A stretch of 64,000 bases of DNA from Chiloscyllium plagiosum. Its lineage: Eukaryota. The position numbers were made by a program, and so were the translations under genes. The DNA lies in the NCBI RefSeq assembly GCF_004010195.1, contig NC_057718.1, positions 82,400,458 to 82,464,457 on the forward strand. The letters run 5' to 3'. A model generated the notes under the pieces. It worked only from the letters and a program-made list of their open reading frames with translations, did not search any database and was not told the origin of the DNA. How positions within the stretch are numbered: the first letter of the stretch is position 1; each line of letters starts with the position of its first letter. This document shows, in pieces, positions 9,073 through 63,725 of the stretch.

Positions 9073-9821
9073 CATATATGATCTGAAATTTGTAAATATT
9101 ACATTTGCTCCTCATATCCACATCATTGATGTATATTATGAATAGCTGATCCTACAGTAGCGCACAAGTCACGGTCTGCCCTCGTGAAAAAGCCTCAGTT
9201 GTTCCTATTCTCTGTTTTCTGTCTTCTTCTCAATCCAACGTCTATGCCAGTACATTACCATGCAGCCTGCTACTTTAACCTTTCTAAACAACCTCTTTCG
9301 GGGGTCGTTACCAAAAGTTTTCTGAAAATTCAAGTATACAACATCTATTAACTCCCTTTTTAGCGATTTTGTTGGTAACATCATCAAAAAAGCTCCAACA
9401 ATTCCAACAGGCATTATTTCCCAGGCACAAATCCATGGTGACTGTGTCCAATTAGATCATAATCAACCAGCTATCAATTATCCCACCGTTTATAATCGAT
9501 TCGTAAAATTTATTTTCCCTGCTACAGGTGTAAGGCTAATGATCTGCAGTTCCCTTTTTTCTATCGTTCCCTTCTTAAATAATGGGGTGACATTTACTAT
9601 GTTCCAGTTGTAGGAATTATTCCAGAAACTACAATTTTGAAAAATGCATTGAATATCTCTACCGTCATGTCCTTTATCACTCTGTAATCTACAAGTTCAG
9701 CTCAGAGGGACTTACCAATTTTCAGGAAGTATAAACAATGACTGCAGATGCTGGAAACCAGATTCTGGATCAGTGGTGCTGGAAGAGCACAGCAATTCAG
9801 ACAGCATCCAAGGACAGGCAA

Positions 9822-9856
9822 AATCGACGTTTCAGGCAAAAGCCCTTCATCAGGAA
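9822..9856 (-). ncRNA. Minimal hammerhead ribozyme motif (PLE type)
   Basis: Minus strand ttcCTGATGAagggcttttgcctGAAACGTCga: core intact, predicted GUC cleavage triplet. Confidence 0.65.
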
Positions 9857-9909
9857 TAAAGGCAGAGAGCCTGAAGCGTGGAGAGATAAGCTAGAGGAGG
9901 GTGGGGGTG

Positions 9910-9930
9910 NNNNNNNNNNNNNNNNNNNNN
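9910..9930. other. Assembly gap (21 N)
   Basis: Run of N. Confidence 1.
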
Positions 9931-11703
9931 TAGCGGGTTTGTTTCAGGACATGGTTGAAGAGCTTCAGGGATGAGGAATTGACCTGGGAGTTGCAGTGGG
10001 AGAGAGACTCCCTGAGATTCTTGTAGAGAGAGGAGGAAAACTTCTTCAAGGCAGGCATCCTTGCAAGAGGATTCGCAGTAGGGTTAAAATCACGAGGTAA
10101 AAACAATGACTGCAGATGCTGGAAACCAGATTCTTGCAAGGATGCCTGCCTTGAAGAAGTTTTCCTCCTCTCTCTACAAGAATCTCAGGGAGTCTCTCTC
10201 CCACTGCAACTCCCAGGTCATTTCCTCAGCCCTGAAGCTCTTCAACCATGTCCTGAAAAACCTCCAGCAACTCGATCCCCTGACTTGTCCGGACTTGTCC
10301 GACCTGCCCAGCTCCTTTTCCACCTATCCACTCCACCCTCTCCTCCCTGACCTATCACCTTCATCTCCTTCCCCACTGACCTATTGTACTCTATGCTACT
10401 CTCTCCCCACCCCCACCCTCCTCTAGCTTATCTCTCCACGCTTCAGGCTCTCTGCCTTTATTCCTGATGAAGGGCTTTTGCCCAAAACGTCGATTTTGCC
10501 TGTCCTCGGATGCTGTCTGAATTGCTGTGCTCTTCCAGCACCACCTTACCAATTTTCAGCCCATTCATTTCTCCATTAGAATTTTCTTACTATTTTCTTT
10601 CATCTCCTCATTTTCCCTGGCCTCTTGGATCTCTGGTTCTGGGAGGTTTCTTGTGTCTTCCTCAGTGAAACCAGAAATGAGGTAATCATGCAGCTTCTCT
10701 GATATTTATCTATTCCTCATTATAAATTCTCCTCATGCTGTCTTTAATGGAATCATATTTGTCTTAACTAAATGTTTCCTATTCATACATCTAGAGAATT
10801 TTTTACAGTCCATTTTATGTTTTCTTCTTAGATTGGGTTCATGTTCTATTTTCTCATTACTTATAGGTTTCTAAGTCCTCTTGTGCTGCATTCTGAAAAT
10901 CTCCCTGTCTTCAGACTTATTTATAGCAACTTTAGAGGCCTTTTATTTTCATTTTATGCAAATCGTTTGCCAGCCATGGTTGACTGACATTTCTGAGTTT
11001 TTGCATCTTGAAGGAATAGTTTTAGAAGGAATATAGTTGCTGTAAGCCATATAATATATTTTAAAGACTATCCATTTCCTATGTACAGTCATGTTTAATG
11101 TATTTTCCTCAATCCAGTTCAAAGAATTTGTGCCACGTGCCTTCCTATTTTCCCTAGTCCAAATTTAACACCCTTGCTTCTGATTAAGCTACCTCACTTT
11201 CAAACATAATTTAAAATTCTATCATATTGTGGTCGCTCACCTCTAAATTTTTTTTATAACAAGATAGTTAATTAGGTCTTTCTCACAACATTTTACTGGA
11301 TCTAAAGTAATCTGTTCTCTAGTCAGCCCCTCAACATACTGCTCTAGAAAACCACCCCCTAGACAATTCAGAAACACATTCTTCACAGCTTCAGTGCTCA
11401 GTTGGTTTCCCCAGTCTATATGCAGGTTGAAGTCAGCCATGATAACTGTGTTGCGCCCATGCGATATGTTTCTCTCATCTCCTGATTAATCCCATGCTTC
11501 ACACTATTGCTACTAATCAGTGGCCTATAAATAACCAAAGTCTGCTGCATCTTACTGTACCTTATCTCCACTTAAACAGAATCCACACATTGTTCTTCTT
11601 ATCTGAGATCCCCTGTTGTTAATGTACTGGTCCTTCTCCTTATTATTACCATAACTTAATGTATTCCTTCGTTTCTATTCTTCCTAAATATCAACTGTCT
11701 TTG

Positions 11704-11780
11704 AATATTCAGTTTCCAGTCTTGGTGAACATTGCAGCCAACATGGCTGCAATGTTCACCAGGACTGGAAACTGAATATT
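11704..11780. repeat. 37-bp inverted repeat (hairpin, 3-nt loop)
   Basis: aatattcagtttccagtcttggtgaacattgcagcca-aca-tggctgcaatgttcaccaggactggaaactgaatatt; one mismatch (a G-U pair in RNA). Confidence 0.95.
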
Positions 11781-20449: not shown

Positions 20450-20748
20450 AGGGTGGCACGGGGGCTCAGTGGTTAGCACTGCTGCCTCACAGTGCCAGGG
20501 ACCCGGGTTCGATTCCAGCCTCGAGTGACTGTCTGCGTGGAGTTTGTACATTCTCCCAGTGTCTGCATGGGTTTCCTCCGGGTGCTCTGGTGCATTGGCC
20601 ATGTTAAATTGATCATAGTGTTCAGGGATGTGCATTAGTCAGGGGTAAATATAGGGTGGAGGCAATGGGTCTAGGTGGGTTGCTGTTCGGATGGTTGGTG
20701 TGGATTTGTTGGGCCGAAGGGCCTGTTTCCACACTGTAGGGATTCTCT
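20450..20748 (+). mobile_element. HE1 SINE
   Basis: gggtggcacgggggctcagtggttagcactg head with gggttcgattcc B-box. Confidence 0.9.
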
Positions 20749-21048
20749 GTATGTGGCATTTACTTAGTGAAAACACATTGCTACTAAAATTGAATGTGCC
20801 TGATTTGTGGTTTCCTCCGGGTGCTCCGGTGCATTGGCCATGCTAAATTGATCATAGTGTTCCGGGATGTGCATTAGTCAGGGGTAAATATAGGGTGGAG
20901 ACAATGGGTCTGGGTGGGTTGCTGTTCGGATGATCGGCGTGGATTTGTTGGGCCGAAGGGCCTGTTTCCACACTGTAGGGATTCTCTGTATGTGGCATTT
21001 ACTTAGTGAAAACACATTGCTACTAAAATTGAATGTGCCTGATTTGTG
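20571..21048 (+). repeat. 239-bp tandem duplication (2 units)
   Basis: 20571-20809 versus 20810-21048, 8 substitutions counted. Confidence 0.95.
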
Positions 21049-22892: not shown

Positions 22893-23145
22893 ATATAAAT
22901 ACAAGTTCTGTGCACTGACTTGAATGAGGGCAATGTCCCCTTGACTTTACTGTGATGTGGTACAAGGTGTGCTAACTCACTCCCTTCTGGTCCACAGTGA
23001 ATGTGTAATATCCTTAAGGCCATGACTAAATTCCACTGTAATGATGACAGTATGTCATTGATGTTAAAGAGATAGTTTCTGTCTCTTAGTACATGGTTAA
23101 AAATCACACAACAGCAAGTTAAAGTCCAACAGGTTTATTTGGAGG

Positions 23146-23180
23146 CACTAGCTTTCGGAGCGCTGCTCCTTCATCAGATG
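23146..23180 (-). ncRNA. Minimal hammerhead motif (antisense arm)
   Basis: Minus strand cat-CTGATGA-a-ggagc-agc-gctcc-GAAAGCTA-gtg. Confidence 0.7.
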
Positions 23181-23204
23181 GTTATGAAACAACTGTTTCA
23201 CAAC

Positions 23205-23239
23205 CACCTGATGAAGGAGCAGCGCTCCGAAAGCTAGTG
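23205..23239 (+). ncRNA. Minimal type I hammerhead ribozyme motif
   Basis: cac-CTGATGA-a-ggagc-agc-gctcc-GAAA-GCTA-gtg: stem I cac/gtg, 5-bp stem II, palindromic AGCT stem III, CUA triplet. Confidence 0.75.
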
Positions 23240-24003
23240 CTTCCAAATTAACCTGTTGGACTATAACCTGGCGTTGTGTGATTTTTAATTTTTTCCATCC
23301 TAGTCCAACACCAGCTCCTCCAAATCTTAGTACATTATTATTTCTATGGTGCTTTGTTCTAAGATTATATTCAGGTACTGACTGAAAATCTTGTCATTCA
23401 CGTGTCCGGACTTTGATGAATTGTTATAAGCACATTTACAGTCTTCTCAGTCTTCCAGTCATCTGGAACTTTCTTTATCATATTTAGTAAATTGTTGCCA
23501 TCTGTGAGCTTGCAAATTGATGTCTCCTTGTTTTGAATTTCAATAGTGTTTTTAGGTGGATTGCTCGTTTATGCAAAATTTGAAGGTGAGGAGATAACTG
23601 TGTTGCAGATGTGGGGTTGGTTGAGTCGAAACTCTCAAAGGCACAATGATTTGGTGGAAATATTCCCTTGCCTAGGGCACTATGCAACAGACACAAGTGA
23701 CAAATGGGTTCCTGTCTCAAATGAGGATGCCTTCATTACAACCTTGTTAAATGCTAAGCATCGATAGCTATAATGACTGCTTTTAAAGTTAAACATAATT
23801 ACTATCCTTGTACACTCTTTATATGACACAGTTCATCACACATCAGTCAGCTAGATTTGAGGGTCTTTCAATTCTGCAGCTATCAAATATAAAGTCTTAT
23901 AATGCTGAAGTAGGAGTTATGGGCCTATTTCTCATTGTGGCATGTCATTTCCTCCCTTGTGTGCAACATTTCACAGATATTACAAGATATCTACCTTCTT
24001 TGA

Positions 24004-24212
24004 TTTGGAGATGCTGCTATTGGACTGGGGTGTGCAAAGTTAAAAATCACACAACACCAGGTTATAGTCCAACAGGTTTATTTGGAAGCACTAGCTTTTG
24101 GAGTGCCTCTCCCTCATCACAACCACCTGATGAAGGAGCAGCACTCCGAAAGCTAGTGCTTCCAATTAAACCTGTTGGACTATAACCTGGTGTTGTGTGA
24201 TTTTTAACTTTG
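24004..24212. mobile_element. PLE family B fold-back mini-element, second copy
   Basis: Inverted arms; intact hammerhead motif at 24124-24158 (+); approximate TSD taccttc(c)tttga. Confidence 0.85.
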
Positions 24213-24499
24213 TACCTTCCTTTGAATTATTATGTGCCTGACATTAAATAGCAATGCGGACAAAACTTCATTAACAGTCATTCTTGTGCTCTGTAACTAG
24301 TCTAATAAATGTTACTGGTCATTCTTTGGATCATTCAGTAAGTCTTCTCTTCATCTTCAGTTTTTCACAATTGAGTTACTGAACAATTTGCTCTTCTTTA
24401 GTTGTATGTCCACACCACAGCATTGATGCTGTTCCTTGAAAAGATGAGTGTTATCCTAACAGTCTTACCTTTCAAGTCCTCAGTCATGAGATAAGGGTG

Positions 24500-24701
24500 C
24501 TGAAAAATGTGTTGCTGGAAAAGTGCAGCAGGTCAGGCAACATCCAAGGAGTAGGAGAATCGATGTTTCGGGCATAAGCCCTTCTTCAGGAACCCGAAAT
24601 GCGATTCTCCTGCTCCTTGGATGCTGCCTGACCTGCTGCGCTTTTCCAGCAACACATTTGTCAACTCTGATCTCCAGCATCTGCAGTCCTCACTTTCTCC
24701 T
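24500..24701. mobile_element. PLE family A fold-back mini-element
   Basis: Inverted arms; CTGAAGA...GAAACATC on the minus strand (24557-24592); 14-bp TSD atg(a/g)gataagggtg. Confidence 0.85.
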
Positions 24702-31667: not shown

Positions 31668-31770
31668 GGTAAAAACAACGACTGCAGATGCTGGAAACCA
31701 GGTTCTGGATTAGTGGTGCTGGAAGAGCACAGCAGTTCAGGCAGCATCCAGCAAAAGCCCTTCATTTATT
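31668..31770 (-). mobile_element. PLE family A terminal fragment
   Basis: gactgcagatgctggaaacc end; 12-bp TSD cctaattgataa. Confidence 0.8.
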
Positions 31771-31879: not shown

Positions 31880-32360
31880 ATGGCATCATTTCCACTTGTA
31901 GGAGAAGCTAGAACTAAGGGGTGCAGTTTAAAAAATAAGGTTTCCCATTTAAAATGGAGAGGAGGAAAAATACTCTTTCCAAGCAGCATAAGCCTTTGGA
32001 ACTCTTACCCCCTGAGAATGGTGGAGGCAGAGTCATTGAATATTTTTAAGACAGAACTATATAGGACCTTGTCAAGATTCCTGATGAAGGGCTTTTGCGC
32101 GAAATGTCGATTTTTCCTGCTCCTCGGATGCTGCCTAACCTGCTGTGCTTTTCCAGCACCACTCTAATCTTGACTCTAATCTCCAGCATCTACAGTCCCC
32201 ACTTCTGCCGATGTAGAACCTTGACCAGTGAGAGTCAAAGACTATCGAGGGTATGCAGGAAACTGGATTGAGTTTGCAAACATGATCTTGTCAAATGGTG
32301 GTGTAAGTTCAAGAGGCCGCATGGCCTACCCGTGTTGCCAACTCATGTGTCTTATGTGCT
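31880..32360 (+). mobile_element. CR1 3' end interrupted by a PLE family A fragment (about 32077-32210) carrying a hammerhead motif
   Basis: LWNSYPLRMVEAESLNIFKTEL; attcCTGATGAagggcttttgcgcGAAATGTC at 32077-32108. Confidence 0.8.
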
Positions 32361-33036: not shown

Positions 33037-35100
33037 AGAGTCATAGAGTCATAGAGATGTACAACAAGGAAACAGACCCTTTGGTCCAACCCGTCCATGC
33101 CGACCAGATATCCCAACCCAATCTAGTCCCAGCTGCCAGCACCTGGCTCATATCTCTCCAAACCCTTCCTATTCATATACCCATCCAAATGCCTCTTAAA
33201 TGTTGCAATTGTACCAGCCTCCACCACATCCTCTGGCAGCTCATTCCATATACGTACCACCCTCTGCGTGAAAAAGTTGCCCCTTAGGTCTCTTTTATAT
33301 CTTTCCCCTCTCACCCTAAACCTATGCCCTCCAGTTCTGGACTCCCCAACCCCAGGGAAAAGACTTTGCCTATTTACCCTATCCATGCCCCTCATAATTT
33401 TGTAAACCTCTATAAGGTCGCCCCTCAGCCTCTGGCGCTCCAGGGAAAACAGCCCCAGCCTGTTCAGCCTCTCCCTATAGCCCAAATCCTCCAACCCTGG
33501 CAACATCCTTGTGTATCCACGTTTATGTGTTTCAAGACATCCAGCACTTCCTCCTCTGTAATCTGGACATTTTGCAAGATGTCACCAACTATTTCCCTAT
33601 TCCCTATCTTCCATATCCTTTTCCACAGTAAATACTGATACAAAATACTCATTTAGTATCTCCCCCATTTTCTGTGGCTCCACACAAAGGCCGCCTTGCT
33701 GATCTTTGACAGGCCCCATTCTCTACCTAGTTACCCTTTTTGTCTTTAATGTATTTGTTAAAACTCTTTGGATTCTCCTTAACTGTATTTGCCAAAGCTA
33801 TCTCATGTTCCCCTTTTGCCCTCCTGATTTCCCTCTTAAGTATACTCCTACTTCCTTTATACTCTTCTTAGGATTCAGTTGATCTATCCTGTCTATACCT
33901 GACAAATGCTTCCTTCTTTTTCTTAACCAAACCCTCAATTTCTTTAGTCATCCACCATTCCCTGCACCTGCCAGCCTTTCCTTTCACCCTGACAGGAATA
34001 TACTTTCTCTGGATTCTCGTTACCTCATTCCTGAAGGCTTCCCATTTTCCAGCCGTCCCTTTACCTGTGAACATCTGCCCCTAATCAGCTTTCGAAAGTT
34101 CTTGCCTAATACCATCAAAATTAGCCTTTGTCCAATTTAGAACTTCAACTTTTAGATCCGGTCTATCCTTTTCCATGATTATTTTAAAATGAATAGAATT
34201 ATGGTCGCTGGCCCCAAAGTGCTTCCCCCACTGACACCTCAGTCACCTGCCCTGCCTTATTTCCCAAGAGTAAGTCAAGTTTTGCACCTTCTCTAGTAGG
34301 TACATCCACCTACTGAATCAGAAAATTGTCTTGTACGCACTTAAGAAATTTCTCTCCATCTAAACTTTTAACACTATGGCAGTCCCAGTCGATGTTTGGA
34401 AAGTTAAAATCCCCTACCGTCACTACCCTATTATTCTTACAGATAGCTGAGATCTCCTTACAAGTTTGTTTCTCAGTTTCCCTCTGAGTATTGGGGGTGT
34501 CTATAATACAATCCCAATAAGGTGATCATCCCTTTCTTATTCCTCAGTTCCACCCAAATAACTTCCCTGGATGTATTTCCGGGAATATCCTCCCTCAGTA
34601 CAGCTGTAATGCTATCCCTTATCAAAAACACCACTCCCCCTCCTGTCTTGCCTCCCTTTCTATCCTTCCTGTAGCATTTGTATCCTGGATCATTAAGCTG
34701 CCAGTCCTGCCCATCCCTGAGCCACGTTTCTGTAATTGCTATGAATCCCAGTCCCATGTTCCTAACCATGCCCTGAGTTCATCTGCCTTCCCTGTTAGGC
34801 CCCTTGCATTGAAACAAATGCAGTTTAATTTATTAGTCCTACCTTGTCCCTGCCTGCCCTGACTGTTTGACTCACTTCTGTTCTCAACTGTACCCGTCTC
34901 AGATTGATCTCTTTCCTCACTATCTCCCTGGGTCCCACCCCCCCACCTTACTAATTTAAATCCTCCCAAGCAGTTCTAGCAAATTTCCCTGCCAGTATAT
35001 TAGTCCCCTTCCAATTTAGATGCAATCCGTCCTTCTTGTACAGGTCACTTCTACCCCAAAAGAGATTCCAATGATCCAAAAATGTGAATCCTTCTCCCAG
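33037..35100 (-). mobile_element. Young HER1/CR1 LINE with the RT core deleted
   Basis: ORF2 start ICFNARGLTGKADEL, IAITETWL, intact C-terminus 33123-33506; junction near 33511 jumps over the RT motifs. Confidence 0.9.
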
Positions 35101-35380: not shown

Positions 35381-36534
35381 TGTAGTGATCGTGACAAGAT
35401 CGGCCAAGTGGACCTCAAAGAATATGTGTTCCCTAACTGGGGTTGTTAATCTATTCTAATCAGGGAGCCCTGGCTGACAGATATAAAGAGGGGTAAGTGA
35501 GGACTGCAGATGCTGGAGATCAGAGTTGGTAGTGTGGTACTGGAAAAGCACAACAGGTCAGGCAGCATCCGAGGAGCAGGAGAATCAACGTTTCGGCCAT
35601 AAACCCATCTTCAAGAATGAGGCTTGTGGGCCGGGGCTGAGAAATAAATGGGAGGGGTGGGTGGGGTGGGGGTGGTTAGCTGGCAAAGTGATAGGTGGAT
35701 GAAGGTGAGGGAGAAGGTGATAGGTCAGAGGGGTGTGATGGACAGTTACCGCAGGCAGTGCAGGCTTGGGACTGGGATAATGTGGGGGGAGGGGAAATGA
35801 GGAAGCTGTTGAAATCCACATTTATCCCGTGAGGTTGCAGGGTCCCAAGTCAGAAATTTACCTGTAGCTCTACCAATGTCATTTACTGCATCCGTTGCAC
35901 TCGGTGTGATCTCCTCTACATCGGATCAATTCAGAGAACATCTCTGGGACATCCGCACCCACCAACCCCACCACCCCGTGGCTGAACACTTCAATTCCAC
36001 CTCCCACTCCATCAAGGACATGCAGGTCCTGGGCCTCCTCCACTGCCAAACCGTTACCACCTGAAGCCTGGAGGAGGAACGCCTCATATTCCACCTTGGA
36101 ACCCTGCAACCACACGGGATAAATGTGGATTTCAACAGCTTTCTCATTTCCCCCCCCCCCCCCCACATTATCCCAGCCCAAGCCTCCAACTCGGCACTAC
36201 CCTTGGGACCTGTCATTCACTCCCTCCTCTGACCTATCACCTTCTCTCACACCTTCATCCACCTATTGCTTTGTCACCAACCACCCCAACCCCCTCCCAT
36301 TTATCTCTCAGCCCCGACCCACAAGCCTCATTCCTGATGAAGGGTAATGCCCGAAACATCAATTCTCCTGCTCCTCAGATGCTGCCCGACCTCCTGTGCT
36401 TTCCCAGATATAAACAGGAGTTTTGCTCACTCTGAGAGCTAATTCTGAGGCAGCTGGATCAGTGTCAAGGACTTTCCATTGGTAAATAAAAAGTGACCTG
36501 GTGACAGGAAATCGGACTCTGTGGAGTTAGTGTA
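35381..36534 (+). mobile_element. Gypsy solo LTR split by a PLE
   Basis: Starts tgtagt, has aataaa, 5-bp TSD actgt (35376-35380 and 36535-36539); matches the LTR at 63613. Confidence 0.8.
35495..36404 (+). mobile_element. Penelope-like element 3' end with GIY-YIG endonuclease remnant and 5' inversion
   Basis: FTCSSTNVIYCIRCTRCDLLYIG...HPVAEHFN...LGTLQPHGINVDF at 35850-36140; inverted copy 35495-35849; hammerhead motif 36331-36360; TSD cagatataaa(g/c)agg(g/a)gt. Confidence 0.9.
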
Positions 36535-36989: not shown

Positions 36990-38385
36990 TACATAAGAAC
37001 TCGGAGCAGGAGTAGGCCGCCTGGCCCTTCGAGCCTGCTCCGCCTTTCAATAAGGTCGTGGCTGATCTTTTCATGGACTCAGATCCACTTACCCGCACTC
37101 TCACCATATCCCTTAATTCCTTTATTGTTCAAAAAAATCTACCTTAGCTTTTAAAACATTTACTGAAGCAGAGTCAACTACTTTATTTGACAAGGAATTC
37201 CATGGATTACAACCCTCTGGATGAAGAGGTTCCTTCTCAATTCAGTCCTAAATCTTGAGGCTATGCCCTCTTGCCCTAGTTTCACCTGCCAGTGGAAACA
37301 TCCTCTCTACTTCTATCTATCCATTCCCTTCATAATTTTATATGTTTCTATAAGGTCCACCCCCGCTCAATTCTAAGAATATAAACCCAGTTTACTGAGT
37401 CTCTCCTCATAAGCCAACTCTTTCAACTCTGGAATCAACCTAGAGAACCCCCTCTGTACCCCCTCTAGTGCCAGTATCCTATCTTAAGTAAGGAGACCAA
37501 AACTACACACAGTACTCCAGATGTCGCTTCACCAGCACCTTGTACTGCTGCAACATAATCTTTCTGCTTTTAAACTCAATCCCTTTAGCAATGAAGGACA
37601 AAATTCCATTTGCCCTCCTAATTACTTGTTGTACCTGCAGACCAACCTTCTGTGATTTATGCACAAGGATACCCAGGTCCCTCTGCACAGCAGTGTGCTG
37701 CAACTTTTTACCATTCAAGGAATAATCCTTTTCACTGTTACTCATACCAAAATGGATGACTTCACATTTATTAACATTGTATTCTATCTGCCAGACCTTT
37801 GTCCACTCACTCAAAGTATCTGTGTTCCTCTGCAAAGTTTCACAATCCCCTGCACACTTTGCTTTGCCACTCATCTTAGTGTCATCTGCAAACCTTGACA
37901 CTCTACACATGGTCCCCAACTCCAAATCATCTATATAAATTGTGAAAAATTATGGTCCTAACACCGATCCCTGAGGCACTGATTGCCGATCAGAATAGCA
38001 CTTATTTATCCCCACTGTTTGCTTCCTGTTAGTCAACCAATCCTCTATCCATGCTAATACCTTACCCGTAACGCCATGCATCTTTATCTTATGTAGCAGC
38101 CTCTTGTGCAGCACCTTGTCAAAGGTCTTTTGGAAATCTAGATATACTACATCCACTGGCTGCCCGTTGTCCACATTGTTCATAATGTCTTTATAGAATT
38201 CCAAAAGATTTGTTAAGCATGCCCTACCCTTCATGCTGCATCTACCCAATGGGACAATTTTTATCAAAATGCCTTGCTATTTCTTCCTTGCTAATAGACT
38301 CAAGCATCTTCCCCACTACAGAGGTTAAGTTAGCCGGTCTATAATTTCCCCATTTTGTCTACCTCCCTTTTTAAACAGTGGTGTG
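36990..38385 (-). mobile_element. CR1 LINE RT and 3' end
   Basis: CLTNLLEF, DVVYLDFQKTFDKV, VPQGSVLGP, SRFADDTKMSG. Confidence 0.92.
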
Positions 38386-39314: not shown

Positions 39315-41655
39315 ATAGACACATAGAAACATAGATGATATGAGCAGAAGTATGATGCCATTTGACCTCATGGCTCTTCTCTGCCATTCAATAGGATCAT
39401 AGCTGACCATTGAGCTTAATATCCTACTCCTATATGCCCATTTAGCCACACGAACTATATCCACCTCCTTCTTCAAAACACAATGTGTTGAACTCGATCA
39501 CTTTCTGTGGTAGTGAATTCTACAGGCTCGTGACTGTCTGGGTGAAGACATTTCTCCTCCTCAATCCTAAAATGTTTATCCCTTATTCGTAAAATATGAC
39601 CAGCGGTTATGGAGCTCCCCCACATTGGAAACATCCTTCCTGAATCAAACTTGTCAAGATCTGTTGGAATTTTATAGGTTTCTATGAGATTCATTCTTCT
39701 AAACTCCAGTAAATAAATCCAAACTGACTCCATCTCTCCTCATGTGTCAATCCTGGGTTAGGCAGGAATCAATTTGGTAAACCACTGCTGCACTTCCTGT
39801 ACAACAAGAACATCCTTCCTCAGAAAAGGAGACCAATATTCCAAGTGTGGCCTCACCAATGCCCTGTTTGATTGAACCAAGTCATCCTTGTTCCTGTAAT
39901 CCTCTCACTATGAAGGCCAACATACAATTTGCCTTCCTTACTGCCTGCTGCACCTGTGTGCATACTTTCAGTGACTAATACACAAGGACTGACGCACAAC
40001 CACATCCACTGACTTCCCTAGGTCTCATTGAACATTCCCCCTCTCAATTTACAGCTATTCACACAATAATCGCCCTTTGTGTTTTTGATAGAAAACTAGG
40101 TACTTCACATTTATCCATATTAAACTGCTTCTGCCTTGCATTCATCCATTCACTCAGCCTGTCTAAATCACAGTGCAACATCTCTGCATCCTCCTCATAG
40201 CTCGCTATCCCACCCAGCTTTTTGTCATCTGCAAATTTGGAGTTATTCCATTTAGCTTTCTCATCCAAATCATTGATATATATTGTGAATAGCTGGGGTC
40301 CTTGCACTGATCCCTGCAGTATTCCACTAGTCACTGTTTGCTGTCCAGAAAAAGACCCATTTATTCCTAGTCTTTGTTTTCTCTCTGCTAATCAATCCAG
40401 CTAGCTTTAATTTTACATATTAATCTGTCAACAGCTTTCTGAAAGTCCAGATAAATCATATCCACTGGCTTCCCCAATCAAGTCAATAGTTACATCTTTG
40501 AAGAACTCCAGTAGATTTGTCAAGCATGATTTCCCTATCGTAAATCCATCTGCTTCTGCCACTGTTTTCTAAGTGCTCTGCTATAAAGCCTTAATAATGG
40601 ACTCTAGCATCTTCCTTATGAATGATGTCAGAGTAACTGGTCTATAATTCCCTGTTTTCTCTCTACTTCCCTTTTTAAATAGTGGAGTTACATTACCTAT
40701 CCTCCGATCTGTAGGAACTGTTCCAGAGTCTAAAGAATAGAACATAGAACATAGAGCAGTACAGCACAGAACAGGCCCTTCAGCCCACGATGTTGTGCCA
40801 ACCACTGATCCTCATGTATGCACCCTCAAATTTCTGTGACCATATGCATGTCCAGTAGTCTCTTAAATGTCCCCAATGACCTTGCTTCCACAACTGCTGC
40901 TGGCAACGCATTCCATGTTCTCACAACTCTCTGTGTAAAGAACCCGCCTCTGCATCCCCTCTATACTTTCCTCCAACCAGCTTAAAACTATGACCCCTCG
41001 TATTAGTCTTGGAAGATGACCACCAATGCATCTAATATTTTGTGGGCCACTTCCTTCTGTTCTCTGAGATATAGATTATCAGGCTCTGAGGTTTTATCAG
41101 CCTTCAGTCCCACCAGTTTCTCTAACTTGATTTCTCTACTAATATAGATTTGTTTCAGTTCCCTGTGTTCCCCATCATTTCTGGTTATTTGTGTTCTCCC
41201 TTCCGAACACAGAAGTGATGTATGAATTTAGTTTGTCAGCCAGTTCTTCATTACCCATTATAATTGCCCCTGTTACTGACTGTAAGGGACCTACATTAGT
41301 TTTCACCAATCTTCTTCTCTTCACATACCTCCAGAAACCTTTATGGTCATTTCTTATGGTCCCCACAAGCTTTGTTTTCCCCTTCTTAATCCATCCCATG
41401 GTCCTCCTTTACTGATGTCTAAACTGTTCCCATTTTTCAGGTCTTTTGCTTTTTCTTGACATTTTGTATGCCCCTTTTTTGCATCTAATACTACCTCTAA
41501 TGTCCCTCATAAACCATGGTTTGGCCACTATTTTCTTTGTACTCTTTTATCATACAGGGATAAACAAATCTTGTAGTTCACCCACTCGCTTGTTGAATGT
41601 TTGACACTGTCACTCCTTTCAGTAACATCTCCCAATCCATCATAGCCAAATCCCA
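39315..41655 (-). mobile_element. CR1 LINE ORF2 and 3' end, with a nested CR1 tail (40735-41005)
   Basis: GILQGSVQGPQLFTIYINDLD, SKFADDKKLGG, PLFKKG..GNYRPVTLTS. Confidence 0.9.
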
Positions 41656-42069: not shown

Positions 42070-42575
42070 TATAAATTCTGTGTCCTCTGATCCAGCCCCA
42101 CTAGTTACCTGACCAAAGAGCAGCTCTCTGAAAGCTTGTACTTCCAAATAAACCTGTTGGACCATAACCTGAATCATAGAATCCCTCCAGTGTGGAAACA
42201 GGCCCTTTGACCCAACGAGTCCACACTGACCCTCCGAAGAGTAACCCACCCAGACTCATTCCCCTACCCTATTACTCTACATTTCCCCTGACTAATGCAC
42301 CTAACCTACACATCCTGGAACACTATGGGCAATTTAGCACGGCCAATTCACCAAATCTGCACATCTTTGGATTGTGGGAGGATACCAGAGCACCCGGAGG
42401 AAACCCACGCAGACACGGGGAGAACGTGCAAACTCCACACAGAGGTGGGAATCAAACTCGGGTCCCTGGTGCTGTGAGGCTGCAGCGCTAACCACTGAGC
42501 CACCGTGCTGCCCCTGGTGTTGTGTGATTTTTTTTACTTTGTCCACCCCAGTCCAACACTGGCACTTTCACATCC
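42070..42575 (+). mobile_element. PLE family B terminal fragment split by an HE1 SINE (42171-42512, minus strand)
   Basis: Degenerate hammerhead at about 42108-42137; ataacctg...cctggtgttgtgtgattttt flank the SINE. Confidence 0.75.
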
Positions 42576-42589
42576 CAGGTTAACAACAC

Positions 42590-44000
42590 AAATCAAGAAC
42601 CTCGCAGTCAATGAGGTCCATCTGGTTCCAATCGCTGCATCCCTCCTCCCTCCAAACCAGGGATATAGGCCTGATCTTTAGCTTTCAGCCTCTCTTGGGA
42701 TGTTTCCATCCCGGATCGGTTCCTCCAACTTGGACTCAGACACGGGCGGGTGTACCTGACCATGGCCTGTCTTGTCTCCAGAATGTATCAGGAGAGCTTC
42801 CTTCTCCCATTCTGGCAGTAAGGTATCAAAGCTGCATGCATCTCAGACTGAGGTTTACTCGACACAGGATGGAGGTGGAGAACTGACAGTTTCTGACAGG
42901 CCTTCTGGCTATTCTGAGGGGCCAGGTATGTTCTGCTCCTGCCCCGTTTGTGAGGTAACAGCTTTCAGGTGATCTACATGTATCACCTTCCTGTACTCTA
43001 AGTCACAGAACCTGACCTCGTAACTATACAGGGTCATTCCCATGGTTCCAGCATCAAACTTCATCCTCTGAATTAAATTGTCTCTCTCGCTTAGAGGGGG
43101 CATGTGTCTGGCATTGGTGTTCCTGCTGCCGTTTCACCCTCCCTCCCCCCATCAGGTTGGGAATATCAAGTTTAACCTGATGCAGAGTCTTCTCCCCATC
43201 AGCAACTCTGCTGGAGCTATCCCTGTTGTTGTGTGTGGCATGGCGCTTTAAGCGAACAGGAACTGGGTCAGTTTGGTATCAAGTGATGATGTAGGCTGCT
43301 TCTTAAGACTGCCTTCAGTGGTTGGACTGCTCTTTCCGTGAAACCATTGGACGATGGATAGTATGGAGCTGTTCTTATTTTGCGATCAAAAAATGTTGAG
43401 CCAATCCAGGTGCATCTTTCTTAACCAGTTACACCCCAATAGGCCTGGGCCTGAGCCTTTAACTACCATCAGTGGTTACCGCACCAACTACTTCTCATAA
43501 GAGACCAGAACTGAAGTCGTACTCTTCATCAGCAATGTTTCTCCAGTGTACGTTGTCAGCCTGGCTGAGGACTTGTGTAAATTTAAAGGTTGGAGTCCCA
43601 AACAAATCTTGTTAAAGACAGATTCTGCAACCACAGATATAACTGTGCCAGTATCAATCTCCATGGCAACTGTGTGACCATTTCACCAAATACTAATTTT
43701 AATCTAGATTAGAGTGGTGCTGGAAAAGCACAGCAGTTCAGGCAGCATCCGAGGAGCAGTAAAATCGACGTTTTGGGCAAAAGCCCTTCATCAGGAATAC
43801 AAGCAGAGCTCCTGAAGGGTGGAGAGATAATTTTAATCTGTTCTGATTTGGGTGTCACAAAGCAATTTAATTGTTCCAACCCACAGGTAAGGGAACTTTC
43901 CAGGGTGTGCACTCTCCTGCACTCTCCTATGAGTTTTCTTACTCAGGTCAGGCCTTGTAGGACTCCTTTGCTGTCTTGAGTCCACATACCAGCAGCAACA
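42590..44000 (-). mobile_element. Gypsy internal remnant (protease and post-integrase region), same family as 61.2-63.7 kb
   Basis: HTLES..GLEQLNC, MEIDTG protease motif and HVDHLKA are paralleled in the 61-63 kb copy. Confidence 0.8.
43706..43827 (-). mobile_element. PLE family A fragment
   Basis: 12-bp TSD taattttaatct; hammerhead motif with GAAA mutated to AAAA. Confidence 0.85.
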
Positions 44001-44814
44001 ACCCCTTAACAAAAATTTGTTAGTACTCTAAAACACACATATGCATTACATTGACTATAAACACGCAAGCATGCACAGCTGCATTCTATTTCAGTCTGTT
44101 GTACTCCTGCCACCTTACACCTCCATTTCTCATTTGAGTCTCGACAATGCGTTTCTCGTCCTACCACATGCACAATTTTCAAATTCAATGGCTGTTACAA
44201 CAAGCTGTATCTAAACAGTCTGGCACTTTTGTCCTTAAATTTCTCCACAAACTTCAATGGGTTATGACCAGTGTATATGATTGTCTCAGATACGTTACTG
44301 GTAATATAAACACTGAAATGTTGCAATGCCAACACCAAGCTCAAAGTCTCCTCAACTGTTGAATATTTCTGATGATGAATGTTCAACTTCCTGAAGAAAT
44401 ACCCAATAGGTCTTTCTAACTTCTCATTGTCTTCTTGCAAGAGCACAGCACTGACACTCACTACTGTGATAGTAACAACTCTTTCAGGCATTTCAATTTT
44501 TCTCAGGAAGGTAACACAATTTTTGACAACTTCCTCATTGTCCAATTCAATTTGAGGAATGTGTTATTCAGAACCCTCTGAACTTGGTTCTTCTCTCTGT
44601 GTTATAATCAATAACCCATTCTCCTCTTGCTTTTCTTCCCTGACAAAATATCTTTTGAGCATATTCACATGGCACACTCTGTGAGATTTCTTTCTGTCTG
44701 GAGTCCCTATCGAGGTGATAAAATCCACTAAAACCGTGCTTTTAAAGGTTCACCTATTACTGCAAGTAACACTAGTACCTTATCCCCAATAGAAAAATTG
44801 CAAATTTTGGGAGT

Positions 44815-47901: not shown

Positions 47902-48100
47902 AGTGAGGTCTGCAGATGCTGGAGATCAGAGCTGAAAATGTGTTGCTGGAAAAGCGCAGCAGGTCAGGCAGCATCCAGGGAACAGGAGAATCGATGTTTC
48001 GGGCATAAGCCTTCCTGAAGAAGGGCTTATGCCCAAAATGTCGATTCTCCTGTTCCCTGGATGCTGCCTGACCTGCTGCGCTTTTCCAGCAACACATTTT
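47902..48100. mobile_element. PLE family A fold-back mini-element
   Basis: Perfect 16-bp TSD catttccagaggagta (47886-47901 and 48101-48116); inverted arms meet inside the hammerhead motif. Confidence 0.9.
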
Positions 48101-55059: not shown

Positions 55060-56660
55060 GATGAATTAGGAGCAGGAGTAAATCACTTGGTCTTCTTGCC
55101 CACATCGCCATTGAACAGGATCATAGCTGATCTGATTGGGCTTCATTCTTGCCTATTCCTGATCACTTTTGATCCATTTTTTTTTCAAGAAGTAATTTTC
55201 CTCTGTCTGAAAAGTATTTAAGGACTCTTAACAGCCTTTTGAGGAAGAGAATTCGAAAGATTCACAACCTTATCTCTGTTTGGAATGAGCTACCTCTTAT
55301 TTTTACATAGTAACACCAAGTTCTAGATTCTCCCACATGAGGAACATCCTTCCCACATCCACTCTGTCTGAACAATTCAGGATTTTACATTTTTCAATCT
55401 AGTTGCCTCTTGCTACGTTGAACTCAGCTGATATAAACTTAGCATGTCCACCCTTTCCTCACAAGACAAATTAGTCTGAAAAACCTTCTCTGCTTTTAAT
55501 GCACTTAGATCCTTCCTTAGATAATGAAGACTCCAGATGGGGTCCCATTAAAGCCCTGTATAACTGAAATATAATCTCCCTAATTTTGTATTTTATTCCC
55601 CTCAGAATAAAACAAAACCTTCTATTTGTTTTCCTAATTAGTTTCTGCACCTGCACACTAGCCTTTTGTGTTCATGCATGAGATATTTAAGAGCTCTGAA
55701 ATCTCTCATCATTTAGTGCTTTCCCTATTTTCCTATTTTACACTCAATTTTCCAAACCTTTATCCTATTTATATCCCTTTGTAGCCTTCTTATATCCTCT
55801 TCATAACTTACTTTCCTACCTAACATTGTGTCATTAGCAAATGTAGCAACCATATCTTAGATCCCTTCAGCCAATTGACTTGTATGAATTGCAAAAGTCG
55901 GAGGCATATCTTTTCCAAACAGAAAATGGCCAACTATCTCTATTCTGTTTCTTGTTAGCTAACCTGTCTAGCTTTGCAGATATGATAGCCTCAGCACCTT
56001 AACATTTCATTTTCCACTATAACTTTTTATGTGGTAACTTACCTATACCTTCTGGAAATCCAAGACCAGTATATCCACCAATTCCCCCTTTATCATTGTT
56101 ACTTTTTCAAATGACTCCAATAAATTGGTGAAACATGATTTCCCTTCCATGTTGACTCTGCTTGATTACCTTGAACTTATCCAAGTGCTCTGCTGTAACA
56201 TCTTTCAGAGTTGTTTCTACGATCTTCTCCATGACAAATATTAAGCCTATAGCTTCCTGCTTTATTTTTCCTTCCCTATTTGAATAAAGGAGTTAACGCT
56301 CATTATTTTCCAAACTAATGGGAACCTTACCCAAATCTTGGAAAATTAAAATCAAAGCTTCAACTATTTCATTAGTCATTTCTTTTTTTTAAATTCGAGA
56401 CTGTGGTGCTGGAAAAGCACAGCAGGTCAGACAGCATCTGAGGAGCAGGACTATTGACATTTCGGGCAAAAGCCCTTCATCAGGAAAGGTTTCCATCTCC
56501 TTATTTTCTATTATTAATTGCCCAAATTCAATTTCTATGACACCAAAATTCAAAATCAATACCTTTTTAAAATATAGAACCATTTTCTATATTTTCTCTT
56601 CTACTTCAATTTCCCCTCCTTATTAATTTTCTCATCATTCTTTGTTAGGTTTTATACTCT
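55060..56660 (-). mobile_element. Old CR1 LINE with a PLE family A fragment (about 56395-56487)
   Basis: FILRGIKYK..QLYRALMGPHLE; minus strand CTGATGAagggcttttgcccGAAATGTC at 56455-56484. Confidence 0.8.
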
Positions 56661-60119: not shown

Positions 60120-60765
60120 CAAAAGATGTTGTGAAACCTGAAGGTGTTCAGAAAAGATTTACAAGAATGTTGCTGGAGTTAGAGGATTTGAGCAATAGGA
60201 AGAGGCTGAATAGGCTGGGGCTGCTTTCCCTAGAGTCAAAATTGGAGTGGTGCTGGAAAAGTACAGCAGGTCAGGCAGCATCCGAGGAGCAGGAGCCCTC
60301 ATTCTTGACGAAAGGCTTTTGCCCGAAACGTCAATTTTCCTGCTCCTCGGAAGCTGCCTGACCTGCTGTGTTTTTCCAGCACCACTCTAATCTTGACTCT
60401 AATCTCCAACATCTGTAGTCCCCACTTCTGCCTGTTTTCCCTGGAACATAGGAACCTGAGGGAGGACCTTATAGAGATTTACAAAATCATGAAGGACATG
60501 GTCTTTTTCCCAAGGTAGGGTTGAGCATATTTTCAAAATAGTTAGATTTTGAAATTCTCTCTCTCAAGCAAACAGAGGAGACTATTTCACTGAATGTATT
60601 CAAGGCTGCATTGGGCATCTTTTTGATTGACAAGGGAGACAAGGATCAGCATAAAGTCAAGAAGGTGGACCTAAGGTCATGTCAGATCAGCCATGATCTT
60701 ATTGACGGGCACAGCAAGCTCAAAGGGCTGAATTGTCTACCTCTGTTTCTAATTGTTATGTTCCT
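60120..60765 (+). mobile_element. CR1 3' end split by a PLE family A fold-back (about 60232-60430)
   Basis: VQKRFTRML..RLGLLSLE, resuming at GDLIEIYKIM-like sequence; insert has inverted arms, a degenerate hammerhead and approximate TSD ctg(c/t)tttccct(a/g)ga. Confidence 0.85.
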
Positions 60766-61005: not shown

Positions 61006-61203
61006 TATTGGAAAGGGAACAGGTTCTAACCTAACCAATTGGATGATTGTTGATTCACAGTCAAATAATGTTTCCAAAACCCTATGTCTTAACTTCAATG
61101 ATTCTCAAACTGATAAAGAGTTAAAGACTTAAACAACAAGCCACAATTTCATTTTTAATGCCCCTATGATTTTACTTCTGGAGTTATTTGCACCCTTTAA
61201 TTT

Positions 61204-63725
61204 TTGGGGACCCTTACTGAGCTGCTGAGAGACCATTTGATATGTGGGATTAATTATGGAACTTCGCAAAAATGCCTACTAGCGGAAGTCCAACCAGACT
61301 TCAAACAGACATCACAATTGGCTTTATCATTGGAAAATTTGGCAAATGGAGCATATGAGTTACAGGGACTTGAGGAACGCCCCTTGAGTGTAGACAGTTG
61401 TGTAGCCTCACTCAGGACATATCCTGATCAGAGGGACTCTGGGTCAGCCCACAGCAAAACCCCAAAACCAAGCCAAGCCTCAGCCAAATGGTTCAAATTG
61501 TCTTGGGGATCCTGGCCAGCAAGTCATTGTAGTTGCTGCCAGAATACAGACTCGAGACAGCTAAAGAGTCCTACTAGACCTAAACTGAGTGAGATAATTC
61601 AGAGGCCAGCATCCAGGAGAGTTCATACCCTGGAAAGTCCACCTGCATCTGGTTTGGACCAGTTAAATTGCTTAGCAACATCCACATTAGAACCAATCAA
61701 AATAAATGTCTGGTTAAATGATCGTCTGGTTCTAATGGAGGTCAATACCCATGTGGCCGCATCAGTGATCGCAGAATCAGATTTTAACAAAATTCTCTTT
61801 GGACCCCCAACCTTAACTTTGCACAACATCTCAGCTAGGCCAAGAACCTATAACAGGGAACCTTTACAGATTAAGGCTAGAACTTCGGTTCTGGTCTCTT
61901 ATGAGAAGCAGCTGGTCCAGTTACCACTGATTGTAGTGAAGGCTTGGGCCCAAGCTTAATGGGGTGAAATTGGTTGTGAGAGATTCACTTAGATTGGCTC
62001 AATATTTTTCAATTAGAAAATGGCTGCCTAAGTGAAATTCTAAGTAAATACCCGGAAGTCTTCTTGCAAGGTCTAGGGATTATCAGAGGAGCCAAGGCCA
62101 CCTTGTATGTTGACCAGGAAGCAGTTCCTCGATTCTGCAAGGCCTGTCCAGTGCCATTTGCCTTATGGGCAAAAGCAGAGGCAGACATCAGGCGCTGCAA
62201 AGTGAAGAAGTCATCAAACCAGTCCAATTTATGGAATGGGCAGTACCGGTCATCGTGAAGCCCAATGCATCAGTTCATCTTTGTGGGGAATTGAAACAAA
62301 TGGTAAACTGTTTTTGCAGCTGGATAGATACCCAGTCACTGGGATAGAGGGTTTATATGTGATTGTCATGAGCAAAAGTCACTGCTAGATATGGCTGAAC
62401 TCCACCAGGGCCATCCAAGAGTCTCCAGAATGAAGACGTTGGCAAGGTGTGGGCGAGTTGCTGGCGGTAATCTTTGTTCTTGTTGGCACTCTGGGCACTG
62501 CCGCACCAATGTAGTTGTGGACCTGGTGGTCAGGCCTGGATGCAGACACAACTATCGCAGTGCCCAGAGTGCCAAAAAGAACAAAAGGTATTTCCAGTAA
62601 CTTCCCCACATCCGTGGGAATGGCCAGGTGAACCTTGGACTCAGTTGCATGTCAACTATGCAGGTCCTTTTATAGGTTCAGTATTCTTTCTCATTACAGA
62701 TGTCCACTCAAAGTGGTTGGACATCCATAGAGTCCATTCTTCAAACACAGGGATGACGATAGAAAAACTGCACGCATCTTTTTCAATACACAGAGTCCTG
62801 CAAGTGTTGGTCACAGATAATAGGCCATTGTTTATCAGCAGGGAATTTAGGTATTCCCGAAAATCAAATGGCATTTGACATATCAGAAGGGCTCCATACC
62901 ATCCATCGTCTTTTGGTCTTGCAGAAAACTCAGTCCTAACTTTGAAGACAGGCTTAAAGAAACAACCTTGCAAGATGCCAATCTGTCATGGTTCTTATTT
63001 GATTATAGAAGCACTCCACAACAAGGGATAGCACTGGCAGATTTGCTAATGGGTAGAACATCAGGTTAAGTCTGATCTTCCAGGACCTGGGGGTGGGATG
63101 GGTGAAACAGCTTCAGGAATGCCAGTGCCAGGCACAAGACTCCACCCAGTGAGAGGGGCAGTTGGATAAAGGGTGAGAAGTTTGGTGTAGGAATCACAGA
63201 AATGGCCTGCACGGGTAAGAGGCATGGACAATGCGAGATCAGGACCAGTGACGTATAAAGTTTGTGTAGGTGTGACAGTCCTGAACAAGCATGTGGACCA
63301 TATGAAAGCCACTCCTCGGAACAGTCAGAAAGGCTGCCAGAAACTGTGGGTTCACCGTCTCCATCGAATGTTATCGAGTCCTCAGAATCAGAGTTAGATA
63401 TAATGGATGTAGCCACCTTAACACCTTTGCTGCTGGAAGAAGAGACTGACATTCTACCGAGGTGATCCTGGTCCATGAGGCGAGCTCCCACACCTAACAT
63501 GCCACCCTGGATTGGACACCAAATCAGAGGCACCTGACCTGGTGCTAAATGCCCCAGGAGGCTCCCTATGAAAAAGAACCAACTTATGGCCTTGGACTCG
63601 GAGAGAGAGGGATGTAGTAATTGTAATGAGGTCAGCACTTGAAGATCATAGAATATGAGTTCTCTAATTGGTGCTGTTAGTCTGGCCCAATCAGCGATCC
63701 CTGGCTGACAGATATAAACAGGAAT
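61204..63725 (+). mobile_element. Gypsy LTR retrotransposon remnant (gag C-terminus, PR, RT start, IN, PPT, partial 3' LTR)
   Basis: LRDHLICGI, PVPFAL, EWAVPV, LHQGHP..CPECQ..PWEWP..HVNYAGPF..DVHSKW..VTDN; PPT gagagagaggga 63601-63612; LTR tgtagt at 63613. Confidence 0.9.

Follow-up and report, generated by a model that had tools for sequence, protein, structure and literature searches.

The 230-nt insert at 23095–23324 of a 64,000-nt stretch of Chiloscyllium plagiosum DNA (the whole of which is called the window here) is real, and it is most likely explained by the known integration pattern of Penelope-like elements (PLEs), not by a new self-copying mobile unit. With high confidence we regard it as the by-product of one integration event by a PLE reverse transcriptase/endonuclease, a head-to-head stub that has likely been inert since. 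Both ingredients of this reading, opposite-strand pairs of minimal hammerheads and the PLE insertion signature, are already published, the pairs in 2014. The parts of the insert and its borders are as follows.

23084..23094, plus strand: left copy of the 11-bp TSD, an exact match to 23325–23335.
23097..23191, minus strand: short inverted arm, read on the minus strand as a 5′-truncated pseudo-LTR copy without the tail; 87/95 complementary to the right arm, its end coinciding with the positions, 23096 and 23288–23292, where contig ends accumulate across the family.
23149..23177, minus strand: minimal type-I hammerhead core of the left arm, predicted cut after 23149, a G-U pair closing stem I.
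23187..23198, no strand assigned: private 12-nt centre, the inversion junction, with a 5-bp inverted stem around AC; unlike the family's upstream consensus.
23194..23288, plus strand: long arm, a 5′-truncated pseudo-LTR copy in sense orientation, matching the family from 23199.
23208..23236, plus strand: minimal type-I hammerhead core of the right arm, predicted cut after 23236, with the features listed in PMC4209133.
23289..23324, plus strand: 36-nt one-sided tail, the 30–40-nt extension of PLEs; such tails are described in PMC8557442, PMC3846280 and PMC11167929.
23325..23335, plus strand: right copy of the TSD.

The exact 11-bp TSD, TCTTAGTACAT, found at 23084–23094 and again at 23325–23335, bounds the insert and has a chance probability of ~0.002 even when 60 × 60 offsets are allowed. 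Between its two copies, arms of 95 nt each (8 mismatches) face one another across a 2-nt centre, AC. Alignment of the repeats and of the arms thus confirms the layout of the original prediction, which had described an 11-bp TSD, a 230-bp insert, arms of about 95 bp and a 2-nt centre. Folded as RNA, the insert reaches −148.6 kcal/mol (z = −21.5), a stability equalled by none of 200 shuffles. A chance origin is rejected. The 36-nt stretch at 23289–23324, which the original prediction had passed over, is left unpaired on a single side of the insert only and turns out to be its diagnostic part. Similarity to the rest of the family begins at 23199, the central 12 nt being unlike the family's upstream sequence. 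Private letters occur on both arms and in the tail, as at 23144, 23249 and 23272, where more than 90% of contig depth differs from the insert.

Two details of the ends deserve description in their own right. At its end the short arm has a branch-point-like TTTTAA; in the tail, a pyrimidine-rich run and then an AG come after it (23283–23303), and together these have the look of an intron 3′ end; a second hammerhead family in the window has a similar TTTTAA-like motif ahead of its short end, and PLEs are known to keep a 5′-UTR intron (PMC2377424). Furthermore, the first 2–3 bases of the TSD (23325–23326, and 24213–24215 in a neighboring copy) coincide with the bases that come next in the family sequence at the element 3′ end. 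This identity may reflect microhomology at the priming site, and the TSDs may be 2–3 bases shorter than counted.

Each arm holds the core CTGATGA-A-GGAGC/AGC/GCTCC-GAAA-GCTA, at 23208–23236 on the plus strand and at 23177–23149 on the minus strand. In the right arm, C3 to A9 occupy 23208–23214, the extra A lies at 23215, stem II spans 23216–23228, and G12 to A14 (23229–23231) lead into the palindromic AGCT at 23232–23235, the CUA triplet, and a 3-bp stem I (23205–23207 with 23237–23239). Cleavage is predicted directly 3′ of the CUA triplet, after 23236 on the plus strand and after 23149 on the minus strand, so that the complete core in each arm and the cut position proposed originally are both borne out by the sequence. 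Stem I is merely 3 bp long and includes one G-U pair in the left arm. As read from the letters, the motif has the conserved core, the extra base after A9, the G10.1–C11.1 pair, a palindromic helix III and an NUH triplet.

These features place the insert next to the minimal hammerheads defined by Cervera and de la Pena (2014, PMC4209133). The metazoan PLE hammerheads described there share with it the core, the extra base between 9 and 10.1, G10.1–C11.1, the palindromic 15.2–16.2 and the absence of loop 3, whereas stems I and II are 3 and 5 bp in the insert versus 4–5 and 7–8 in the Schistosoma consensus. The same paper interprets opposite-strand pairs 100–700 bp apart as probable truncated PLEs, while the two core starts of the insert lie 31 nt apart; cartilaginous fish are not mentioned in the text covered. 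The original description of the ribozyme as intact holds for the core sequence, which is complete, but for the sequence only; single minimal hammerheads of this type are reported not to cleave, and dimers to cleave at a low level (PMC4209133). In structure prediction, stem I forms poorly in isolated arms (0–0.11), and a dimer modeled through the AGCU palindrome has an energy of −17.7 kcal/mol, ~10 kcal/mol above the best cofold (−27.9). A search with Rfam models, suggested with the original prediction as a check on the hammerhead, gives no hammerhead at gathering score in the 64-kb window and none among the 19 matches at E ≤ 10 in 22900–23500. The best Rfam matches near the insert are generic miRNA hairpins, and all miRNA matches fall far below the gathering score. 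Therefore, the motif call rests on the 2014 description of the minimal hammerhead (PMC4209133), not on an Rfam model. Among metagenome and prokaryote genome contigs, the 33-nt core has 0 exact matches.

Because the arms lie head to head, the complement of each ribozyme is transcribed before the ribozyme itself, in both directions. When read-through RNA with 100-nt flanks is modeled, stems I and II are given a probability of 0.0 on either strand, and the bases of the core are paired. Whichever strand is transcribed, such RNA is predicted to bury the ribozymes fully, and the fold prediction supports the earlier proposal that read-through transcripts would sequester them. The 29-nt core is free of the 8 inter-arm mismatches (P = 0.047 for a window picked post hoc, P = 0.13 including stem I), and all four CpGs survive in the insert, an outcome with a probability of ~0.13 at the family rates. 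That both cores are intact is a weak hint of constraint or of arm-to-arm repair, and it counts weakly against the reading of the insert as an inert by-product.

On its anatomy, the insert's family would belong to the PLEs. All four anatomical marks are found: a head-to-head inverted 5′-truncated copy, a one-sided tail of 30–40 nt, a short TSD, and a pseudo-LTR hammerhead. Typically, PLEs have an inverted 5′-truncated copy next to their 5′ end and a 30–40-bp tail on one end (PMC8557442, Craig et al. 2021). Rotifer examples show TSDs of 8–10 bp and a 31-bp tail, and self-priming has been proposed for their palindromic junctions (PMC3846280, Arkhipova et al. 2013). The inverted terminal repeats of Drosophila Penelope vary in size, and a 34-bp repeat is noted there as well (PMC2377424). 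The insert resembles the EN+ PLE units of PMC3846280 and PMC8557442 in its head-to-head inverted 5′-truncated pseudo-LTR, one-sided tail, short TSD and junction palindrome; in contrast to those units, its arms are cut to ~90–125 nt with no frame between them, the published figures showing mostly units with coding sequence. In Anolis carolinensis, the protein of the PLE Poseidon cuts and extends both target strands, with two start sites bounding the tail; its hammerhead needed protein, and insertion in vitro did not require the ribozyme or its cleavage (PMC11167929, Frangieh et al. 2024). As in the insert's family, the tail of Poseidon is bounded by two classes of 3′ ends, the hammerhead lies a short way upstream of them, and inserted copies retain an uncleaved ribozyme (PMC11167929); the biochemistry was demonstrated for Poseidon only. 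No publication on the insert's family in sharks was found in the open literature, which was the scope of the search, so the family may be catalogued in repeat databases such as Repbase or Dfam.

Further copies of the insert's family and of a second, sister hammerhead family lie elsewhere in the window.

24002..24212, no strand assigned: second fold-back of the insert's family, 211 nt, with a 10-bp TSD containing 1 mismatch (23992–24001 / 24213–24222).
42107..42570, plus strand: third copy, single-arm, of a related subfamily, split by a ~340-bp dispersed repeat; G8 of its hammerhead is mutated.
9726–10544, 24500–24701, 35492–36404, 47902–48100 and 60232–60431: five fold-backs of the second hammerhead family, each with a TSD of 11–16 bp, a one-sided tail and its own centre.
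43706–43827: single-arm copy of the second hammerhead family, with a 12-bp TSD.
~31669–31750, 32077–32204 and 56393–56486: further pieces of the second hammerhead family.

The catalogue comprises 8 TSD-bounded inserts, namely 7 fold-backs from the two hammerhead families and 1 single arm; 4 further candidates without a convincing TSD were left out. Every one of the 7 fold-backs has a TSD of 10–16 bp and an unpaired end of 31–53 nt on one side and of 0–2 nt on the other. Their centres all differ (7/7), with spacers of 2, 8, 12, 39, 43, 245 and 498 nt. The fold-back at 24002–24212, only 700 bp from the insert, has its tail on the left, on one arm, a different junction, and one hammerhead that is both truncated and mutated. 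In the third copy (42104–42138), stem I is altered on both sides relative to the focal insert, a compensatory change which, judged from the letters, supports a ribozyme fold in the parent elements, the G8 mutation notwithstanding. Within the 9726–10544 insert, a nested palindrome at 9942–10258 (127-nt arms, 98% complementary) appears to contain sequence running past the tail; it looks like a more complex single event and adjoins a run of N, so its assembly is uncertain.

A broken frame at 35833–36150, enclosed by the sister-family fold-back at 35492–36404, is similar to what we take to be the terminal part of a PLE GIY-YIG endonuclease, Cys and His motifs included; Pfam gives 0 matches for the three frames of this remnant. 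No reading frame adjoins any of the three copies of the insert's family within the 64-kb window. The window is repeat-rich, with 22% self-repeated, and its repeats are presumably shark-like. Of 273 low-repeat frames of at least 55 aa, 138 were scanned with Pfam and gave 7 matches, 6 to retroelements (RT, RNase H, endonuclease) and 1 to ALKBH8_N; no clear host exon appeared among these 138, a scan that short exons would escape. Decayed LINE-type endonuclease/RT frames and an LTR-type RNase H frame are recognized by Pfam at 34313–34778, 37506–38276, 40062–40391 and 44198–44563; a further frame, at 61201–61959, looks by eye like an LTR gag-protease region and has no Pfam match. A 37-bp perfect-type inverted repeat (97%) around 3 nt at 11704–11780 shows no resemblance to the hammerhead families, and no TSD was found for it. 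A 240-bp tandem duplication (97% identical) at 20570–21048 overlaps a dispersed repeat.

Public DNA contigs give a family-wide view of the insert. Three runs, two from studies of organism A and one of organism B, were aligned to 22900–23520 at 85% likeness, yielding 47,225, 44,868 and 42,478 records. Summed contig depth reaches 1e6–1e7 on the arms against 4–11 on the flanks where these are covered, which shows that the family is very large, summed depth not being a copy number. At the centre (23192) the depth drops to 88, 22 and 46, i.e. 2e-5, 5e-6 and 3e-5 of core depth, and 533 distinct joints are reported, of which 15 were inspected; palindromic centres assemble poorly and rare joints are hidden, so a few sister copies of the same junction may exist. 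None of the 15 inspected joints is an empty pre-insertion site. Contigs extending upstream of 23199 (416, 419 and 465 per run) share a consensus unlike the insert's centre (agreement ~0.45), so 23187–23198 looks private. Contig ends cluster at 23096 and 23288–23292, which mark the short end, and coverage declines along the tail, defining two 3′-end classes in the family. At the catalytic G12 (23229), itself part of a CpG, an A is read in 19.5, 17.7 and 17.8% of depth; the corresponding shares at 23224, the G of a non-catalytic CpG, are 17.5, 15.2 and 15.9%. Since G12 decays like a non-catalytic CpG, activity is not being maintained across the genomic copies taken as a class. In organism B, one contig crosses from the left flank and covers 25 letters of the arm, an overlap below the 31-letter rule that only suggests that the insert is shared and older than the organisms' split. 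In one contig depth class of organism B (9.37; 23188–23192, run X13) the centre differs by a substitution and a 2-base gap; this class may represent the orthologous copy, which would mean that the centre drifts freely.

The following account of the enzyme, its template and the sequence of steps is an inference. Staggered nicks ~11 nt apart in both target strands would generate the TSD. Reverse transcription of an uncleaved PLE RNA would then start at the tail end and stop ~9 nt upstream of the hammerhead core, giving the long arm with its tail. The short inverted arm would come from a second synthesis within the same event. This synthesis was probably primed at the opposite nick, from a second start site lying 36 nt farther inward; about as likely, the arm arose by snap-back of the first cDNA. 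Finally, the two ends would be joined through the private 12-nt centre, the hammerheads being cargo of the parent pseudo-LTR. Second-nick priming is favored for two reasons: the short arm ends at a family-wide 3′-end class, and the enzyme of the anole element, which cuts and extends each of the two strands, works from a pair of start sites on either side of the tail (PMC11167929). Snap-back, on the other hand, is equally compatible with the mirrored private 5 bp.

The centre bears on whether the hairpin itself could be the propagating unit. The original prediction had proposed a PLE-mobilised unit and held that a different inversion junction in every genomic copy would point to independent integration by-products, a pattern that largely applies here. 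The PLE origin is supported by the anatomy, but the hairpin as a propagating unit is not, for the public contigs barely cover the centre and reveal more than 500 joints, and no two centres agree among the 7 fold-backs of the window. A non-autonomous element transcribed and re-inserted whole, in the manner of a MITE or a retrozyme, would accord with the clean TSD, the two intact cores, the great abundance of the family, and the similar size (199–211 nt) of 4 of the 7 fold-backs besides the focal insert. Its centre, however, is covered at only ~1e-5 of the depth of its arms; the arms also differ from each other by 8%, with private changes on both, and RNA of the unit itself is predicted to bury the ribozymes. 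We consider such an element highly improbable. MITE and Foldback DNA transposons consist of a fixed inverted-repeat unit that is amplified whole, with both repeats abutting the TSD. They are rejected for the insert on its one-sided 36-nt tail, its unamplified centre and the seven differing centres. Non-LTR retrozymes, non-coding hammerhead-bearing derivatives of PLE pseudo-LTRs reported in one cartilaginous fish as well, are head-to-tail tandems with hammerheads in at least two consecutive units and so two ribozymes on one strand (Li, Clavereau and Pollet, bioRxiv 10.64898/2026.07.22.740005). The insert, unlike these, is arranged head to head, and each strand has a single ribozyme with its complement ahead of it; with inverted arms, one core per strand and no head-to-tail tandem, it is rejected as a retrozyme. 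The 5′ boundary of the arms raises a related question. Ribozyme cleavage is rejected as its source, because the arms hold an uncut site and start 37 nt upstream of the cut. It might instead mark the start of a dedicated short RNA of ~125 nt, a SINE-like non-autonomous PLE end beginning 9–10 nt upstream of the core and copied twice per event to give fold-backs, as the family match starts at −9 from C3 in both focal arms and at −10 in one arm of the second copy. Against this, hundreds of contigs continue upstream with common family sequence, the third copy and three sister-family copies reach well upstream of the core, and other arms begin within or after it. The pile-up at 23199 is, moreover, partly built in, as the reference departs from the family there, and the boundary is accounted for equally well by a strong stop of the reverse transcriptase or by the start site of the parent itself. 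A dedicated template of this kind seems to us unlikely, and it is in any case compatible with a by-product origin of the hairpin.

Whatever its origin, the locus could now act as a regulated ribozyme or supply hairpin RNA of the siRNA or miRNA kind. Both strands are predicted to form a near-perfect stem of 95 bp, the cores have no inter-arm mismatch (P = 0.047), the organism-B contig that crosses from the left flank into the arm by 25 letters, under the 31-letter rule, suggests an older insert, and PLE small RNAs are reported in a rotifer. Yet the 138 scanned frames include no host exon (short ones would escape), every Rfam miRNA match is far below the gathering score, and the insert has accumulated private mutations like the neighboring copies, all of which makes a present function very unlikely. 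Assembly of a collapsed repeat might likewise create a fold-back, and none of the listed contigs spans the whole stretch. Nevertheless, the arms differ at 8/95 positions with private changes on each, the TSD is exact, the left junction is bridged by 53 letters in run X1, and contigs reach 25–28 letters into the tail (X1, X5), so that the chance of an artefact is close to nil.

As the by-product of one integration, the insert is a single locus of little weight, one among very many decayed stubs. As a class, however, clean short fold-backs with TSDs are good material for studying how PLEs make their inverted ends. They also carry a warning, as hammerhead, MITE and miRNA-hairpin predictions in such genomes will be dominated by fold-back by-products. 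A more far-reaching idea, which we rate as distinctly doubtful, is that a dedicated short RNA whose start lies just upstream of the hammerhead is copied twice per integration often enough to yield very many perfect hairpins of 60–130 bp, whose read-through dsRNA silences the parent PLE and masks the ribozyme. If true, this would amount to a self-made brake on PLEs arising from the element's own integration mechanism, and small RNAs from such hairpins, if shown, would link that mechanism to host silencing.
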